A program made the position numbers and the translations under genes. The notes under the pieces were generated by a model. That model was not told the DNA's origin and searched no databases. It saw nothing but the letters and a program-made list of their open reading frames with translations. From contig LT649344.1 in the NCBI GenBank assembly GCA_900128395.1, positions 1-35,210 of the forward strand: a stretch of DNA of 35,210 bases. Reading direction: 5' to 3'. How positions within the stretch are numbered: position 1 is the first letter of the stretch; every line of letters begins with the position of its first letter. Source of the stretch: Stramenopiles sp. TOSAG23-2. Taxonomy: Eukaryota. Positions 4,238 through 34,325 of the stretch are shown here, piece by piece.

Positions 4238-4724
4238 GGCAATAAGAACTTTAATATATATATACGTGTATGATAATGCTCTTGATGATAATAGGCGATA
4301 ATGTAAATGTATACAATTTGAATCTATCTCACTTGTCTATCCATCAATTATTATCTAATATATTATACTGCATGTGCATGTACATACTCTAGGTATTATA
4401 AAACAGCAATTAGTGCATTATTACTATCCTAACAACTATATATATATTTTTAATTAATAATAATAAATATTTTCCATCATGCACTCTATTATTATTATTT
4501 GAATAATATAAATAATACCAGGTATCATATTAAATATGTAGGAGGTAATAGTACCGGTACCTTAATATGCACTCCAGCACTCTCCACCTGGTGGTAATGT
4601 ATTATAAATGGCACCGCGGTAGTTAGTTAATAATAGCACTATGTACAATATAGTTCAATATCGCCACCACTCCAGCACTGTAAAAAAGAAGAAGAAGAGA
4701 CAAATAATAATAATAATACAAATA

Positions 4725-4927
4725 CTTTTCGATGAAGTCCGGCCACCCCACCACACCCCCCCCACACACCACACGAAAAAAAATTCACAAAATAATGGTC
4801 GAAATGGTGAAATGGTGAAATGCCGCGAAAATTCCGGCCACCCCACCACACCCCCCCCACACACCACACGAAAAAAAATTCACAAAATAATGGTCGAAAT
4901 GGTGAAATGGTGAAATGCCGCGAAAAT
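4725..4927 (+). repeat. Left TIR (4725-4822) plus a 95-bp tandem duplication of its inner part
   Basis: Reverse complement of 8718-8815. 4738-4832 is repeated at 4833-4927. Contains a C-rich tract and GAAATGGT sub-repeats. Confidence 0.9.
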
Positions 4928-5154
4928 GATGATGCATAACAACATAAAAGAAAATCAAAATTCAATACTATATACGTATAAAATATATAAAATATATATA
5001 TCATATATAGTATAAACATATCTAGATAGAAAGATAATATATATAGATACTATACATACATATATACATACAGATACCATTTATTGCACATATACATATA
5101 TACGAACAATCATTACATTGAAAACTATACGTCTACAACTTGAGTTTCCCAATA

Positions 5155-7110
5155 ATGTCGACGAACAACGATATCGAAGTGACAGATGAACGAGCATTAT
5201 CATATTTCAAAAACGTGCAGATTTCCAAATTAACCGCGGATATGTTTAACAACATGAAGAAAAAGAAGAAGAAAATTTTACGTAAATTCATACTTGCTCT
5301 ATTCCCATCGATTAAAGATTTAAAATTATTAATATGCGACCTTTTTGATAAACGAGAGACTCAGTTAGACGGTTTAGCCAACGAAGAAGCGGCAGCACGC
5401 TATATTTTATCCAATGTAACCAGTTATAAAAAATTTTTAAAATATTTAAGAATACGTGATACTGTCAAAGATAAATCTGACGAAGAGAGTGATAGCGATG
5501 ATTCATTATCCAGTGGCGATAGTATGCTTGAAGGTTTTGAAGATGATGATGATGATGAGGTAGAATTTCTCGGTACTGCTTCAAATCAATCGGAAAATAA
5601 TAACGATACGAACAAACGTAAAAGCAGCGGTTCTAGTTCATCGTCTTCTTCAAGGTCGTCTAAAAAACCAAAAGTAGAAAAGAAAACTGTATCATTTAAT
5701 GTCACAGTTCATAATCCAGTAAGCTATGAATCATCAAAAACAGGCGAATCGACACTAAAATCAACTAAGATCAATAAAGAAGATAAACCCGTCGGACCAT
5801 TTGGACCCTATGAAAACGTTGATGAGATTGATCTTAATGAAATTTTGTTGGCATTAGATGCGGCATTAAAAGCTCACACTTCAGAATCTATTAAAATTGG
5901 TGCACAAGGAAAGATCTTTTACTATAGGGATAAGAAAACAGGATTCTTGGAATTGGATACAGATGTATTGAAAGCAATGTTAAAAAAATTATTTAATAAA
6001 GCAAAAGATAATGATGGAAAAGTTGGACTTTTCTTACCATTAGCTTTTTCACAATGTAAAGATAACGCGTCTGACGATATAATGTCGAAAGAAGAGATTG
6101 AAACTGCAATTGAGATCCAAAAGTTGAAAAAGACAAAGGTAACAGTAAAAATTGTACCACCGATTGTTTTTAAAAAAAAAACAAACTCATCTACACTTCA
6201 ACGAGTTGTTGATCGTCGATATTTAGTACGTATTACAGAAGTATCCCTCCATGATATTAACGCAAAGTATTTGAGTAAGGAAATTGATGCTGTTGTTGAA
6301 CGGGGAGAATATGAATTACAAGATAACAATTCCTTGGATATGGACAGCAATGATAGTAGCGAGGATGATAGTAGTGAACCTGTACATCAAATTTATTATA
6401 TTATTGTTTTTACAAATGATCAAACACGAAGTTATGTCTTGAATTTTGATGATGGTGAAAGTGATTATGAAAGAATGACAAGATTATTACAAATTGCAGA
6501 AAAGAAAAACATGACATTGATTGTAACATACTTCGACCCGACTCCACCGAAAAGTAAGAATCAACTCACCAACGATTATAATAAAATGTGCAGAAAAGAA
6601 TTACTTGAAGCATTTAATAATCCCAACAGTCAGTTATATAAATCTTTTAATGAAAAAGCGCTTGGATTGATCAGTCAGTTTACATCAATTAAACATAAAG
6701 GAAGATTGCAAAATATTTTAAATGGTGATTTCACAGAACTCAATAATGCCATTCCTTGGGGAACTGTTGGTCTTAAATATTGTCCTGGACCAAAAACGGG
6801 GCAATATGAACATGATGAAAATCCACCAAAGTATGTCCCACCAAGTGACAGTGACAAAAAGAAGGGTGCTAGTTCAAGTGCTTATGAACAACCGGTCTAC
6901 AATATCAACATTGGTTCATTGGATAGTTCAAATAACAATAACAATAACAATAATAATATGGAAGACACTATTCAAAAATTGCTTGAAAAAATTGACAACT
7001 TGGAAGAAAGGATCGACTCTCCTGGAGTTTCTGATCGTTCAAAAGCAACATATGGAAAATTGAAAGACAAATACGAAACTGAATTGGAAAAGTTAGTTAA
7101 TGATCTTTAG
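5155..7110 (+). CDS. Transposon-borne accessory protein of unknown function (651 aa)
   Basis: Uninterrupted ORF wholly between the TIRs; first ATG is 5155 (the ORF track starts at TTG 5140). Acidic tract, basic NLS-like motifs, two internally similar segments and a C-terminal coiled coil. Confidence 0.85.
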   Translation: MSTNNDIEVTDERALSYFKNVQISKLTADMFNNMKKKKKKILRKFILALFPSIKDLKLLICDLFDKRETQLDGLANEEAAARYILSNVTSYKKFLKYLRIRDTVKDKSDEESDSDDSLSSGDSMLEGFEDDDDDEVEFLGTASNQSENNNDTNKRKSSGSSSSSSSRSSKKPKVEKKTVSFNVTVHNPVSYESSKTGESTLKSTKINKEDKPVGPFGPYENVDEIDLNEILLALDAALKAHTSESIKIGAQGKIFYYRDKKTGFLELDTDVLKAMLKKLFNKAKDNDGKVGLFLPLAFSQCKDNASDDIMSKEEIETAIEIQKLKKTKVTVKIVPPIVFKKKTNSSTLQRVVDRRYLVRITEVSLHDINAKYLSKEIDAVVERGEYELQDNNSLDMDSNDSSEDDSSEPVHQIYYIIVFTNDQTRSYVLNFDDGESDYERMTRLLQIAEKKNMTLIVTYFDPTPPKSKNQLTNDYNKMCRKELLEAFNNPNSQLYKSFNEKALGLISQFTSIKHKGRLQNILNGDFTELNNAIPWGTVGLKYCPGPKTGQYEHDENPPKYVPPSDSDKKKGASSSAYEQPVYNINIGSLDSSNNNNNNNNNMEDTIQKLLEKIDNLEERIDSPGVSDRSKATYGKLKDKYETELEKLVNDL

Positions 7111-7398
7111 ACTTTATAAATCTTGATGATATTTGTATTTTTCTAATAATATATATATTATAATATATTTGTAAAAATATTTATGATATGATATAATAAA
7201 AAACAAACAAAACAAAACATGCAACGCCAATAATATTATATTTTTAGGAGTAACGATAAATGATACATACAAAAGTATGATATGATATTATCTAGATTTT
7301 ATTACACACAATATGTAAAAAATAAAAATATAATAAAATACACTACGTACGTAATATATTTTTAATTTACGTATATAATTTATTGTTTTAATTTTAAC

Positions 7399-8532
7399 TC
7401 ATGATAATTCCAATGCTCTTGAAATACCACGTCCAATTCCAATTGCAATATCAAGCCATATTTTTCTTTTCGATGATTCTATTTCGTCCTCTTCTGATGG
7501 AATATAAAATGTTCCTTTGAAACAATGATTAAAGATATTAATTAACTTAGGTCTTGTTACTTGTGCCATTGCTGTATAATATAATTGCGTTTCACTAGTG
7601 GTAAATCGCTTGTATCGTCTCATACCAGCTTTATATATTCTAAATCCATATTCTATAGGATTGATATGTGGGCAATATCTGGCTGTGAAGATTACAATTG
7701 CACCAACACTTTCAACTCTTTCTTGGATATAATTTTGGTCATGCACAGGTGCATTATCTATAATCAACACTGAATTTCTTTCACCTTGTAGAAAATTCCC
7801 CATAACAGGAAGCAAAATATTGTCCAAATAGAAACTAAATGTATCCATATCGACAGTTTCCACTTGCCGATCAATTTGATAACATGCTTCGTGTATAAAA
7901 CCATCCAAATTCATAGCCGCAATCAAGGTAAAACGTTCATCCTTCCGTATAAATCTTCTAATAATTGACGCATCTGATCCTTTTTTGCACCAACCTCTAC
8001 GTCTACGACATGCTTTTTCATCTTTAGCTGTTTCATCAACAAAGATAAATGTTTCTGGGTCTAAATACTTAATTCGCTCCAGAAAGTTCGCCATTTCCAC
8101 TTCGCACCGTTCTTTTGCTTTCCTTTTTAAAAATCGTAATGACAACCCACTACGGCGTAGGTATTTACTAATAGTGGAGGTATGAATTTTCGGTAAACCT
8201 ATACGTCGCATTTCGTCTTGTAGTTCATCCAAGTATAGTTCAGGTTCTCGTAATGCTAAATCATGTAACATTTTTTCTTCTGTTGGAGTTAGTGACCGTT
8301 TTCCAGATTTTCTTTTCCCTGCTTTTTTTCTCGTCACAGCAGGTACTTCGCCATATAGTTTGTAATGTTTTAACCAATCTTGAACAGTGCCACGTTTTAT
8401 CTCGTATGGACATCCGTTTAACACGCCCTTTCTATCACAACGTTGTCTTTGAGATAAATGTAGATTGTCAAAATACCATCGTAAATATTCTAATTGAACA
8501 CGTTCACCGTATTGTTTCTTGCCTTCTGGCAT
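7399..8532 (-). CDS. IS630/Tc1-family DD34E transposase (377 aa)
   Basis: HTH region (PELYLDELQ...IHTSTISKYLRR). Catalytic motifs FIFVDET, LIIDNAPVH and YCPHINPIE, with 34 residues between the second D and the E. Confidence 0.95.
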   Translation of the reverse strand: MPEGKKQYGERVQLEYLRWYFDNLHLSQRQRCDRKGVLNGCPYEIKRGTVQDWLKHYKLYGEVPAVTRKKAGKRKSGKRSLTPTEEKMLHDLALREPELYLDELQDEMRRIGLPKIHTSTISKYLRRSGLSLRFLKRKAKERCEVEMANFLERIKYLDPETFIFVDETAKDEKACRRRRGWCKKGSDASIIRRFIRKDERFTLIAAMNLDGFIHEACYQIDRQVETVDMDTFSFYLDNILLPVMGNFLQGERNSVLIIDNAPVHDQNYIQERVESVGAIVIFTARYCPHINPIEYGFRIYKAGMRRYKRFTTSETQLYYTAMAQVTRPKLINIFNHCFKGTFYIPSEEDEIESSKRKIWLDIAIGIGRGISRALELS

Positions 8533-8717
8533 ATTATAGTGAATATATATATATATGTAAGATGTATCGAATATGTATATGATGTATGTATATCTAATAT
8601 ATATATATATATGTATTGTGTATTATGTATTGTGTATATCGTCTGTATATATCTCTAATATTTTAATATAAATAAATAGTACATCATATTTCATATTTTC
8701 ATTGCTATTTTCGACGA

Positions 8718-8968
8718 CATTTCACCATTTCACCATTTCGACCATTATTTTGTGAATTTTTTTTCGTGTGGTGTGTGGGGGGGGTGTGGTGGGGTGGCCG
8801 GACTTCATCGAAAAGTATTCATATAATCCAATAATAGTAGGCACGTAGTGTGGGATAATAATAATACGTGTGGTGTGTGGGGGGGGTGTGGTGGGGTGGC
8901 CGGACTTCATCGAAAAGTATTCATATAATCCAATAATAGTAGGCACGTAGTGTGGGATAATAATAATA
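8718..8968 (-). repeat. Right TIR (8718-8815) plus a 102-bp tandem duplication spanning the TIR end and flank
   Basis: Reverse complement of 4725-4822. 8765-8866 is repeated at 8867-8968. Confidence 0.9.
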
Positions 8969-19396: not shown

Positions 19397-19550
19397 GTTG
19401 ATACTATCTATTTACCTTCATTGGTATTTTCGATTATGAGAATATCAACACACTTGTGTGAGATAGATTATTTCAGTTATTGTATTCTTTTGAAGAGTAG
19501 GAATTATCATGAGTAAATTAAAAATAAATTATGCGTAAATTAAATTATAT
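19397..19550 (+). repeat. Dispersed tail-to-tail spacer repeat, copy D (most complete)
   Basis: GTTGATACTATCTATTTACCTTCATTGG...ACACACTTGTGTGAGATAGATTATTTCAGTTATTGTATTCTTTTGAAGAGTAGGAATTATCATGAGTAAATTAAAAATAAATTATGCGTAAATTAAATTATAT. Confidence 0.85.
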
Positions 19551-26640: not shown

Positions 26641-26951
26641 TTACGCATAAGTTACGACTCGTACGTATTTTTTAATTTACTCAATAATAATTCCTACTCT
26701 TCAAAAGAATATACAATAATTGTAATTAATCTACGAGTATCTCACACTAGTGTGTTGATATACCCGTAAATATTAATTTAATTAATATGTGCATAAACTT
26801 ATTTATTAATTTACTCATGATAATTCCTACTCTCCAGAAAGAATACAATAACTGAATATCTATTTGCCTCCATTGGTTTTCTCTTTTACGAGGGTGTTGA
26901 CACACTAGTGTGAGATAGATTATTGCCTTCAGTTATGATACATTATTCTTT
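26641..26951. repeat. Cluster of tail-to-tail spacer repeat copies E (26641-26761, -), F (26791-26863, -) and G (26857-26951, +)
   Basis: Two reverse-complement copies (TAATTTACTCA..TAATTCCTACTCT..AAAGAATA) and one forward copy (ATCTATTTGCCTCCATTGG...CACACTAGTGTGAGATAGATTATTGCCTTCAGTTA). Confidence 0.8.
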
Positions 26952-30275: not shown

Positions 30276-32063
30276 TTATGGAAGTTCAATGTATTTTTGG
30301 ATACCGTCAATTAATTTTTTATTTTCATCAGCAAATTTAACAGGATTCGCACGGAAAATATTGCACTTGGTTCTCGTTTCATCGTTATATGTCTCCGTCT
30401 TCATTTGTAAGGTGATTTCCATTTGTTTAAACAATATACGTTCAAAAGTATTTCGAAATTCAATCGGGTCATTTTGTTCCATTTTTTTCAAATCATTTGC
30501 GGACAAACCATTGAATATTGGCAATGCTTTATCGCCAAATGCAGTGCACCATTGGGCACCAGTATGGTCAGCAACTTGCATATACACCAAGTAACGCCAG
30601 ACTGGCTCATCATATTCTTTGTCTTCTTGCTCATTACGCCATTTTCCACCTTCATAGCCGGGCTCGATTAATTTCTTCATTGAGACAGGATCGCTTGGAT
30701 AACACCATCTTTCTTTTTTCAAAAAAGTAAGGTATGCTTTCGTGTTGATATATGTTGGTTTCATCCCACCTTTTCCATCATCAACACTGCCCATATTCTC
30801 GACTTTGATTGTGTTCACTGTTTTGCGCCATTCCAATCCAGTGCGATCGGTCGAACCGCTGCGTCCTTCGGATAGTTGAGCGAAAGTTTGTGTAGATCCT
30901 TGCGATTCCCACCACGCTTTTAAATTTGTTGCCTCTGGTAAATCCGAGTTTAACATCATTACTGTACTGTCGTAAGTGCTAAGACTTCGACCACCATAAT
31001 CACCAAGTCTTGTACCTTTGAAAAGCACGGTTGGATTGTTTGCAAAAGTGTCCGGGGAAATTTCAGCTTTCTTTCCCCATAAAGTAACATTGATTGAGCT
31101 GCCCGAATCATCGACAACAGTTAATTCGCGTTTCTTCAATTCTTTCCCAGCTTTTGACGTCAATTCTTTGACTCCACCATCAGTAGTGACAACACCGCAA
31201 ATATCAACTAAACCAGCAGTTTCTGGATTAATATTTGCTAAATTTGAAATTTTTGTAATTTTGTAAACTAAGCTACGAATTTGTTGATCTTCGAAAGGGC
31301 CTTCAATTTGCACGTCCATGCCAAAGGTAATTTCATATTCACTTTTACAGTTGTTGTATTTTGGATTACCAATTTTCAAACGACCATTTTGAAATGTATA
31401 TACTTTACCTTTTTCTAAACGAGTATAATATGCATCGACTGCTTCTTTAAAAAAAGTACAACGAATGTCGTCACCACTTGAATCTACAAGCTCCATGCTG
31501 AACAATTTGCCTTGCCCACGCGCATTGCTCCACTCTTTAATTGGTGCCTTGTTTGCAACGCGCGCTTTCAGTTTCCAACGGTTTTGGTATGGATTCAATG
31601 CCATGATTGGGGTGTAGCCAACATCCGGTGCACGCGCCATTGGTCGACTTGATGTACTTTGCGGTGCACCTGGATTATAACCACTACCTTGATTTGGCAT
31701 AGGTGCTTGTGCAGTGTTTGCTTTCTCAATCGGAATGGGGTCGCCAATCTTGTCTGCTTGCGGGATAGAAATGTCCATCTTTAAAATGATAACGATTTTG
31801 CGTACTCCTACCTTATTACATATATACTCATTTAGTTTTACAATGGCATTTTTTTGTAATTTATTTTCCTCGACTAAACTGTTTAGTTGTGTAGTAAGCA
31901 TAGATTGTGCATAAAAACGTCCATCGCTAATAATTACACGGTAACGATCTGCGCCTGTTCCAGCAATTTTGCGTATATCGATGACTTGTACAGTCGGATG
32001 AAATACTGTTGAATCTTTTGTTTCATTGATCAAATCAACTACAGAGCCTTGTGTCAACGACAT
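30276..32063 (-). CDS. RPA1: Replication protein A 70 kDa subunit (595 aa)
   Basis: N-domain RYRVIISDG, DBD-A LNPYQNRWKLKARV..GKLFS, DBD-B VDICGVV..NVTLWG..GGRSLS and DBD-C ADHTGAQWCTAF..ETYNDETR. Confidence 0.97.
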   Translation of the reverse strand: MSLTQGSVVDLINETKDSTVFHPTVQVIDIRKIAGTGADRYRVIISDGRFYAQSMLTTQLNSLVEENKLQKNAIVKLNEYICNKVGVRKIVIILKMDISIPQADKIGDPIPIEKANTAQAPMPNQGSGYNPGAPQSTSSRPMARAPDVGYTPIMALNPYQNRWKLKARVANKAPIKEWSNARGQGKLFSMELVDSSGDDIRCTFFKEAVDAYYTRLEKGKVYTFQNGRLKIGNPKYNNCKSEYEITFGMDVQIEGPFEDQQIRSLVYKITKISNLANINPETAGLVDICGVVTTDGGVKELTSKAGKELKKRELTVVDDSGSSINVTLWGKKAEISPDTFANNPTVLFKGTRLGDYGGRSLSTYDSTVMMLNSDLPEATNLKAWWESQGSTQTFAQLSEGRSGSTDRTGLEWRKTVNTIKVENMGSVDDGKGGMKPTYINTKAYLTFLKKERWCYPSDPVSMKKLIEPGYEGGKWRNEQEDKEYDEPVWRYLVYMQVADHTGAQWCTAFGDKALPIFNGLSANDLKKMEQNDPIEFRNTFERILFKQMEITLQMKTETYNDETRTKCNIFRANPVKFADENKKLIDGIQKYIELP

Positions 32064-32761
32064 TGTACTATTCTAACAAAAAAAGAGTGAGAAGGAGAGT
32101 TCAATTTTTTTTAGTGTAAAAGTTAACAAACAAAATACGAAAATAGATGTTGTTGTGTATGAATGCGTATTTAATTTATTGTATATATATGTATGTATGT
32201 ATATATATATAAATAAATAAAACAATTTGCGTATGTTTTTTCTTTTTGAATTTCTTGATTTCGTTTTTCGATATGTTTCAATTATGATGATAATATACAG
32301 CAGCATATATGACATTCAATATTATATACAACAATATGTATGTGTATAGATATATAATATAAATATATATCGATATATGTATGTATATTCTATCTCTTCT
32401 ATAGTGCTATATCTATATGTTCCCCTGGTATAATAATAGCACAATAATAATAATGGCTCTCATCCGCCTCCTGATGCTGGCCTTGGATTTTCAGTCTATA
32501 ACACTACTAGGTAGCTCCTATTAAATTTTAAAAATCAGTCTAAAAATCACAACCTCATGAAATATGGCACCAAGTATAAATATTTATAGTCTATATGAGT
32601 TGAAACCACATTTTTCCCTATGATAATTTCTCAATGTGGTCTAGTACAACTATCTATAGAGTTGATGAAATCATCCTATATCTAAAATGTTCTTCCATCA
32701 AAAATCATAAATAAAAATCCCCAAAAACCAGGCAAAACTACCTTTTCCCTCAATCAAACAA

Positions 32762-32776
32762 TTTGAATTTCGCGGG
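32762..32776 (-). promoter_or_regulatory. Candidate E2F/CDE-CHR (DREAM-type) cell-cycle element in the RPA1-RPA2 bidirectional spacer
   Basis: TTTGAATTTCGCGGG (reverse: CCCGCG-AAA-TTCAAA) combines an E2F-like TTTCGCGG with an adjacent CHR-like TTYRAA. It lies near the middle of the spacer. Confidence 0.5.
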
Positions 32777-33359
32777 CTTTCTTTTCAAAAACTTTATTAT
32801 ACTATAGTAATAGCATTGTAAAAGATTAATTCCTGTATCTGTGTATACGATTTAATGTACTCGATTCACCTGTGACATCCTATCTCACTAGTGAACTGAT
32901 AACTTTCTCCTTTAACTTTATTTAGCATTTCGGAACAATATTTTGATAGGAAGTATACCATCTTTTACAGTATCCTGTAGTATGGAATTGATGTAGACAC
33001 CGAGATAGAGCTATATGGTAGCTAGCCCAAACCATAGCTGCTGGCCCCCTCGTAGAACTAAAACCTGAGAAGATGATGATATATGTATGATATGATGTAT
33101 TATTATTATTTTATTAGTGCAATAATAAATAATAATAAATAAATACATCATCTTTTCTGTAGTACATCATACAAATAATAGACGTATACGTGTACTGTAG
33201 AAGAAAAAGAAGAGGCACATTTAGATAGATAGATATTACATACATACATATATACATACATATACACAGAAACGAAAAGATTCTAGTAATTGCTAATTAT
33301 TGAGATCATATTGATTGATCAGAAAGAAGAAGAAGAAACACACACACATATATATAACA

Positions 33360-34325
33360 ATGGATGATTATGGTGGTGGTTACGGCGGCGGTGGTAGTTA
33401 TGGTGGCGGGTATGGTGGTGGATACGATGCAAACGCAAATCAAGGTCAACAAAATGCATATGGTGGAGGACAACAAAACAATGGATATGGTGGTGGCGGC
33501 GGGAGAGGAGGTGGATTTGTATCACCGCAAGGATCTAATGCTAATTCATCGCAACAAGGTAAACGTGAGGAAGTAACCGCACGCACAGTCACGTTGCGTC
33601 AAGTTAAAAACAGTAAAAAATCCGATTCTAGCGACAAGTTTCAAATAGACGGTCAAGATGTTAACCAAGTTGTTTTTGTTGGTTTGGTTTTATCAAAGGA
33701 AGATAAAAGTACACATCAAATGTTTGAGATCGAAGATGGCACCGGTAGAATGAAAGTTAAAAAATGGAATAATCGCGATGACGATGGATCCGAACAATCC
33801 GAGGCTCAAAATCCTGATGCCGTAGGTGCATGGATGATACGCGAGGGCGATTATGTTTGTGTTCAAGCGCAACTAAAAGATTTTGATGGTACAAAACAAA
33901 TTAATGCACACGGTATACGTCCAATACGTGGTGATTTCAATGAGGTTATGCATTATCAACTTCAAGCTATTTACGAACATTTATATTTTACCAAAGGTCC
34001 TTTGCCAGATCCAAAAAATCCAAATGCAAGTACCGGTGTGGGTAACTTAAATGCTATGAAAAACGGTGTCAGCGGTTTAGGTAGTCGCGGACCAGCAGTA
34101 ACAGCAAATAATAATTCTGGTGTAACAGAGAAAATTGTAGAAATTATTCGTAAATCAAATGATGGGAGTGGCGAAGGTGTATCGATCAATACGATACAAA
34201 ATGAATTATCCAAAACAGGATTTGATGTTAAAACTTTGCGTCGCGTTGTTGCTGACATGTGTGATGATGGTTTATTATATTCAACTGTTGATGATGATCA
34301 TTTTGAAACTACTACAGCTGATTAA
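33360..34325 (+). CDS. RPA2: Replication protein A 32 kDa subunit (321 aa)
   Basis: G/Y-rich N-terminus with GGGFVSPQ, OB fold (FQIDGQDVNQVVFVG, IEDGTG, DFNEVMHYQLQAIYEHL) and winged helix (EGVSI...DGLLYSTVDDDHF). ATG at 33360. Confidence 0.95.
   Translation: MDDYGGGYGGGGSYGGGYGGGYDANANQGQQNAYGGGQQNNGYGGGGGRGGGFVSPQGSNANSSQQGKREEVTARTVTLRQVKNSKKSDSSDKFQIDGQDVNQVVFVGLVLSKEDKSTHQMFEIEDGTGRMKVKKWNNRDDDGSEQSEAQNPDAVGAWMIREGDYVCVQAQLKDFDGTKQINAHGIRPIRGDFNEVMHYQLQAIYEHLYFTKGPLPDPKNPNASTGVGNLNAMKNGVSGLGSRGPAVTANNNSGVTEKIVEIIRKSNDGSGEGVSINTIQNELSKTGFDVKTLRRVVADMCDDGLLYSTVDDDHFETTTAD

Follow-up and report, generated by a model that had tools for sequence, protein, structure and literature searches.

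A two-gene IS630/Tc1-type transposon in Stramenopiles sp. TOSAG23-2 and the second gene of its lineage, with a predicted PB1-like fold

Contig LT649344.1 of Stramenopiles sp. TOSAG23-2 (GCA_900128395.1) harbors a transposon of the IS630/Tc1/mariner (ITm) superfamily that contains two genes: a DD34E transposase and, convergent with it, a large open reading frame (ORF) here called ORF2. The window, meaning the whole stretch of 35,210 nucleotides that was analyzed, is contig C720 of a 32.8-Mb eukaryotic assembly with 9146 contigs. At the level of the family, the pairing of this transposase with a second gene is a solid result. Comparison of the sequences indicates that ORF2 has been inherited within the lineage as an accessory gene and is not a recent capture, and a gene that is both inherited and non-catalytic is the probable reading. 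The model of ORF2, which is of low confidence, points to one PB1-like beta-grasp domain and probably a second one.

A convergent partner is present at all four DDE_3 loci of this genome, namely the present element, C4814, C6173 and C4946. The transposase of C4814 is 49% identical to that of the present element, and its 656-aa partner, which lies inside the terminal inverted repeats (TIRs), is homologous to ORF2. The partner at C6173 has 514 aa or more and is interrupted by the contig end; that at C4946 is 5'-deleted and shares 76% identity with the C-terminus of the 535-aa frame found at locus L092. In the metagenome scan, which covers the best 80 of 341 confirmed stretches, a partner was defined as a convergent stop-to-stop frame of at least 250 aa, and a downstream flank of at least 1.5 kb was required (39 of 80 loci kept, 41 dropped). 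Such a convergent frame occurs at 33 of the 39 loci, against 4/39 for frames on the same strand, and the upstream control gives 3/11 (convergent) and 0/11 (same-strand). Clustering at 90% transposase identity leaves 25/30 convergent vs. 3/30 same-strand. Where both TIRs are available, the partner lies inside them at 14 of 17 loci. The ORF2 families group on transposase clades, as read without formal test from a FastTree tree that takes in the fetched loci only. At two loci (L054 and L067) each TIR includes a start codon, at the same offset on both sides, so that the first residues of transposase and partner are identical. The initial annotation had proposed a two-component family and had named the position of ORF2 homologues within TIRs beside this transposase clade as a check; the four loci of the genome and the TIR-flanked loci of the metagenomes agree with that proposal.

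In GTDB, 21 distant loci were found, and among the 16 with enough flank a convergent ORF occurs at 8/16 and a same-strand ORF at 6/16, a pattern expected for gene-dense DNA; none matches an ORF2 profile. Locus L134, being fungal-type, was excluded from this count: its contig is filed in a bacterial metagenome-assembled genome, carries a fungal-type transposase plus ORF2 and is a probable contamination. Viral contigs contain a single weak locus.

The ratio of nonsynonymous to synonymous substitution rates (dN/dS) was estimated by the Nei-Gojobori method, without a significance test, for six locus pairs among relatives of the element, giving seven ORF2 comparisons. For ORF2 the values are 0.18, 0.21, 0.49, 0.82, 0.52, 0.35 and 0.62, all seven below 1, and for the transposase of the same locus pairs 0.08-0.21. 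Purifying selection in related pairs, for which the initial annotation had named dN/dS as a check, thereby joins the evidence for a two-component family. The value of 0.82 involves a truncated copy and is compatible with neutrality. The dN of ORF2 is 1.2-29 times that of the transposase. A similar imbalance is seen against a near-identical copy in another assembly, in which 375 of 377 transposase residues are identical: the first 150 residues of ORF2 match fragment P0001 at 119/149 positions, and fragment P0002 matches at 271/279. This suggests that the N-terminus of ORF2 is fast-evolving or recombining, the alternative being a chimeric assembly.

ORF2 has no Pfam match below E 0.02 and no match to the PB1 profile (PF00564) at E 0.1. 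Nothing significant was found in the PDB by sequence or in BFVD by fold, the Atlas gave no usable match for the homologue P0006, and a word-index search gave nothing with ORF2 and only two fragments of the same family with its alignment. HMMER over representatives returned seven ORF2 matches, none named, two of which are distant and full-length. The protein begins with a basic helical N-terminus that includes a Lys run (residues 1-107), followed by an acidic/Ser linker (108-178), a probable first beta-grasp (179-299), a PB1-like second beta-grasp (about 327-461), a conserved helical domain (about 468-565) and a C-terminal helical hairpin (600-650). In the AlphaFold2 model, built from an 8-sequence alignment, both units (179-299 and 328-458) follow the order strand-strand-helix-strand-strand-helix-strand. 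With residues 327-463 of this low-confidence model, PB1 comes out on top (Z 8.6, root-mean-square deviation (rmsd) 2.4, 80 aligned residues) and ranks 1-12 are all PB1 entries; in an unbiased structural search with the second unit PB1 leads as well (Z 8.2, rmsd 2.5, 85 aligned). The best matches are PB1 domains of host signalling and autophagy proteins, with a sequence identity of 8-15%. Because the fold matches but the Pfam PB1 profile does not, ORF2 is named PB1-like rather than PB1.

Other partners of the lineage contain comparable parts. The helical domain of ORF2 (about 470-565) aligns with two other metagenome ORF2 families at an HHalign probability of 77-92, compared with 0.1-0.3 for reversed controls. 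The model of a fungal partner (L125; predicted local distance difference test score, pLDDT, 67) comprises a beta-grasp, a Cys/His motif and a SAM-like end. Its beta-grasp has the strand and helix order seen in ORF2 and resembles PB1 at a modest Z of 6.1 (rmsd 3.1, 86 aligned), and the SAM-like end is matched at an equally modest Z of 6.5 (rmsd 2.4, 62 aligned); the Cys/Cys/His motif is kept in 9/10 aligned sequences. The partner at L124, from a third family, has weak Pfam matches to PB1 (E 0.03, under the cut-off) and to SHOCT (E 2.6e-5). PB1 and SAM domains are known to polymerise head to tail. A shared architecture is thus seen across the three partner groups, from which a single origin across eukaryotes may be inferred, as far as the models go.

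Several results weigh against this picture. Among the 30 clusters, five are without a 250-aa partner: L107 has a degraded partner, L072 a frame of 206 aa and L117/L118 a YqaJ-like gene, and in L055 and L116 nothing was found. One of the 25 positives, L108, probably represents a host gene beside an ORF2 remnant, the gene being presumed to belong to the host from its type of sequence. The present ORF2 has no relative close enough at the DNA level for dN/dS, and all values come from relatives. The ORF2 model is weak (mean pLDDT 54, predicted template modelling score 0.33), the structural Z of 6-8 is near the stated background of the tool, and no Foldseek match reaches E 0.001. The first beta-grasp has neither a structural match of its own nor a profile match to the second, and is recognized by secondary-structure order only; no DNA-binding fold was identified in ORF2. 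Profile comparison links ORF2 neither to the fungal families nor to the SHOCT family with its three members nor to the partner at C6173, and among pairs of ORF2 families 5/91 fall below E 1e-3, compared with 1/91 for reversed controls. As a separate observation, the YqaJ-like exonuclease gene (L117:4438-5022, and L118) replaces a recognisable ORF2 in a 5.4-kb DD34E element of the clade.

The least probable account of ORF2, and a very improbable one, is that it is a single-copy gene of the host, captured recently and without a part in transposition. The assembly does contain only one full copy, whose G+C content at third codon positions (GC3) resembles that of host genes. However, the only full-length relatives with DNA context (C4814, L051 and L052) all sit beside related transposases, a divergent paralogue occupies a second element of the same genome, and the remaining genome matches are short fragments; a full-length copy standing alone as a host gene was not found in this genome. 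The partners might also be unrelated cargo, acquired several times, whose common layout arose by convergence from an inward promoter in each TIR. Most ORF2 families being unlinkable by profile comparison speaks for such a history, as does the clade member with a YqaJ-like gene instead. Against it, the same strand and helix order recurs in the beta-grasp of two partners that were modelled independently, the marine families have a helical domain in common, and resemblance to a named host gene was seen in no partner (none of the ORF2s gives a match at the curated cut-off), so that repeated acquisition appears improbable, if much less so than a recent capture.

The remaining accounts take ORF2 as part of the element and differ in what it would do. 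The element is best explained as an autonomous, probably recently active cut-and-paste transposon that targets TA and belongs to an IS630-like DD34E lineage of eukaryotes, in which two inward-reading genes are the normal form. Its transposase would bind the TIRs, excise the element and insert it at TA, a chemistry that is established for ITm elements. ORF2 may be a nuclear protein without catalytic activity, which would oligomerise or dock onto partners via PB1-like beta-grasp domains and the C-terminal helical module, and its conserved helical domain would work on the DNA or chromatin of the element itself such that the element stays expressed and mobile. A non-catalytic protein working by assembly is proposed because the recognisable parts are interaction folds; the targeting, regulatory or anti-silencing factor suggested by the initial annotation is a possible role, and the PB1-like fold, as modelled, makes such a scaffold likelier. 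Among possible roles, an element-specific pro-expression or anti-silencing function like that of VANC is tentatively placed first, because ORF2 is retained within each element although it evolves much more rapidly than the transposase. A direct cofactor of the transpososome, which would bind transposase or TIRs and bridge ends or steer insertion, like the Myb protein of PIF/Harbinger, comes second and is doubtful. Near-constant linkage and co-inheritance by clade fit this role, as do an interaction fold such as PB1 and the equal offset of both start codons inside the TIRs of two related elements, implying co-expression from twin promoters; yet single-gene ITm elements are known to transpose unaided, and ORF2 is far quicker to change than the transposase, as the first 150 residues of the near-identical copy illustrate. 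A complex prediction for the transposase with ORF2 175-651 gave no answer (score 0.00, alignments unused) and speaks neither for nor against this role. In third place, and unlikely, ORF2 could be a decoy or suppressor facing the host, with PB1-like domains that sequester PB1 proteins of the host or factors of RNA silencing, or co-polymerise with them, and thereby shield transposon products. Its fast and uneven evolution and its structural matches to host PB1 domains are consistent with this, and convergent transcription might yield double-stranded RNA in need of suppression. However, a general suppressor would not have to be carried by every element, the basic N-terminus hints at a protein of the nucleus, and the sequence identity to true PB1 domains is low. 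The VANC-like role, which remains the preferred one, takes its name from the VANC proteins of VANDAL (Mutator-like) elements, which are element-encoded accessory proteins with demonstrated anti-silencing activity (PMC5735166, consulted in part). Like ORF2, VANC evolves with its element; VANDAL elements belong to another superfamily, no sequence or fold link was tested or seen, and for ORF2 anti-silencing is only a proposal. A more far-reaching version is possible but speculative: the lineage, widespread in eukaryotes, would be natively two-component and ORF2 one ancient family, which would combine a PB1-like beta-grasp with a small domain that reads DNA or chromatin and a swappable oligomerisation module (SAM-like, SHOCT or helical hairpin) and would coat the element as a polymer, either against host silencing or for transpososome assembly, in an arms race with the host.

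The two-gene layout of an ITm element is as such not new. The present element shares with DD34E members of ITm the helix-turn-helix (HTH) and DDE_3 transposase, the DD34E motif, the TIRs and the TA duplication. As far as the consulted parts of the literature go, those elements mostly have one gene; here, a second gene that exceeds the transposase in size is regularly present, and the outermost two bases are asymmetric. Some ITm elements called mariners carry a Fanzor, a RuvC/TnpB-type nuclease, as second gene. In ORF2 no Pfam or PDB sequence match to such a nuclease was found, and the model consists of beta-grasp and helical parts; the statement of the initial annotation that ORF2 lacks tyrosine-recombinase and RuvC motifs stands, there being no Pfam match to either. 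The L31 elements of bivalves and cnidarians reportedly have an ORF2 that is integral to most full-length elements. They are DD37E, compared with DD34E here (34 residues between D259 and E294); a possible relation of their ORF2 to the present one is the main risk to novelty. A similar layout is found in the Paramecium ITm elements Tennessee, Anchois, DDE1-3 and Sardine, which are about 3-3.6 kb long and have TA ends; all 13 combine a DDE gene with a shared ORF2 whose function is unknown (PMC5405496, consulted in part). Two ORF2s in the supplement of that paper are about 200-260 aa long, compared with 651 here, and a by-eye comparison of these two sequences revealed no shared motif; the ciliate members are mostly D32E, and some add a tyrosine recombinase (PMC5405496). 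Tec1/Tec2 and TBE of ciliates combine a DD34E ITm transposase with extra ORFs, one of them on the other strand in Tec; according to the available part of the source, they have three ORFs, with a tyrosine recombinase in Tec, or a zinc-finger protein and telomeric ends in TBE (PMC7325037). The present element has only two long ORFs, no tyrosine-recombinase Pfam match in ORF2, no telomere-like tips and no three-ORF set with a zinc-finger protein. Dici1/Dici2 of Diutina catenulata are about 4 kb long, DD34E, with a TA duplication and extra coding sequences; the accessible text describes three coding sequences (among them a 143-146-aa orphan and a relic transposase), a transposase of 473-477 aa and no PB1-like partner (bioRxiv 10.1101/2025.11.06.686975). 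The initial annotation had held the family to be possibly undescribed. The Paramecium and Dici elements show that the two-ORF layout is already in print; a PB1-like ITm partner or a lineage-wide pairing was not described in the literature searched, which lay outside Repbase, Dfam and most subscription journals, nor was such a partner in the parts seen of PMC11544213, PMC9977792, PMC12477816 and bioRxiv 2022.03.07.483234.

The coordinates of the element are given in Table 1. It spans 4719-8821 (about 4.0 kb), so that its outer limits lie 6 bp beyond those of the initial annotation (4725..8815), which was right about a real TA-flanked TIR element, its matching 98-bp TIRs, the intact DD34E transposase and the second intact 651-aa ORF on the opposite strand, both genes reading inward. 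The arms 4713-4825 and 8715-8827 are 96% complementary; the TIR is about 104 bp long and matches exactly over 98 bp (4725-4822), with the first inner mismatch at 4823, and the two outermost bases of the element are not inverted copies of each other. The terminal 22-mer occurs six times in the genome, as one tandem copy and five distinct ends. In all five, TA is followed by CAAATA or TGAATA and then the TIR, and the flanks beyond are unrelated. Because these ends share this layout and differ in their flanks, the element is delimited as above with TA on either side. The five ends are equally compatible with a CA duplication within a TACATA target; the reading as TA with two mismatched bases is preferred because three related elements of the same genome have plain TA flanks. 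An extended inverted arm of about 280 bp was dropped, its score beyond the TIR being equalled by 23/200 shuffles. With TIRs, a TA duplication and a DDE_3-type transposase bearing the triad and an N-terminal HTH, the hallmarks of ITm are present. The transposase matches Pfam DDE_3 (E 4.8e-16) and HTH_32; its triad is invariant in 15/15 aligned relatives, and among motif matches 65/72 are D34E and 0/72 D37E.

Table 1. Features of the element and its borders, in window coordinates
Feature	Position	Strand	Remark
Left TA target-site duplication	4717..4718	.	TA at the same offset in all 5 distinct genome ends
ORF2-side TIR, begins CAAATACTTTTCG	4719..4825	+	Identical to right arm across 4721-4822
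Second copy of 95-nt tandem duplication within left arm	4833..4927	+	Probable assembly artefact
ORF2, 651 aa	5155..7110	+	Uninterrupted frame
AT-rich spacer between both stop codons	7111..7398	.	
IS630/Tc1-type transposase, 377 aa, HTH + DD34E (D166, D259, E294)	7399..8532	-	
TIR on the transposase side, begins TGAATACTTTTCG on the minus strand	8715..8821	-	
Right TA target-site duplication	8822..8823	.	
Second copy of 102-nt tandem duplication (outer TIR + TA + flank)	8867..8968	+	Probable assembly artefact

A tandem duplication is found at each end of the element (95 nt from 4738 and 102 nt from 8765). The window holds eight near-exact tandem duplications of 90-134 nt, at 400, 1361, 4738, 8765, 9851, 20361, 21360 and 26340, several of them at gene ends. 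Because there are eight of this kind, the two in the arms are taken as probable assembly artefacts, and further findings in this genome may be affected in the same way. Without the left duplication the element measures 4008 bp; the ENA sequence that contains the ORF2 fragments P0001 and P0002 and the transposase P0012 measures 4026 bp.

The assembly contains one full copy of the family, two further ends at contig breaks (C728 and C1380) and one derivative on C8523 (L031:146-1952), which is 1.8 kb long, is bounded by the same TIRs and is non-coding between them (no ORF reaches 60 aa). This derivative is likely to have moved in trans. No empty TA site was seen. The identical TIRs and the near-identical copy elsewhere make recent activity of the element likely, as far as sequence can tell, and fit the youth ascribed to it by the initial annotation. 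On C622 (L034:5785-5919), 135 bp identical to the middle of ORF2 lie within unrelated sequence, as a chimera or a footprint. Six further families of the lineage occur in the same genome: L044 (C4814), L045 (C4946), L046 (C6173), L037 (C5137), L047 (C1522) and L048 (C759). Internal deletion or truncation has affected three of them, and C5137 represents a deleted version of the element that is complete in L051. On C742 (L157), a 109-bp fragment from the 3' part of the C4814 partner is in frame with a short ORF, which we take to be HNH-like from its look. Apart from 2 possible source runs, near-identical DNA (at least half of sampled words) is present in 5 marine runs that belong to 3 studies, and the host is presumably a marine protist; six RNA runs contain only 0.05-0.11 of the words, which is no evidence on expression either way. 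The neighboring ORFs are ordinary eukaryotic genes according to Pfam, encoding RPA subunits, a leucine-rich-repeat protein and a Roc/Ras-like GTPase; RPA1-like and RPA2-like genes stand head to head at 30276-34325. A 64-nt inverted repeat at the contig start (1-262) is possibly a fold-back artefact, and short dispersed intergenic repeats, both direct and inverted (1617-1792, 12708, 19397-19524 and 26803-26892), may be what is left of another small element.

In textbooks, ITm elements stand for DNA transposons with a single gene. Across the broad lineage described here a second gene is the rule; it is kept by selection, evolves fast and now comes with a fold hypothesis, and the question of what the ORF2s of multi-gene ITm elements do becomes testable. 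The ORF2 lineage could explain a class of orphan hypothetical proteins, the nearest Atlas clusters of the fungal partner L125 being unnamed families of Ascomycota and Basidiomycota proteins. If ORF2 counters silencing or steers insertion, it may be of relevance for transposon tools. Should the lineage be natively two-component, with one ancient ORF2 family, a dedicated accessory-factor system of ITm elements would be known for the first time outside ciliates.

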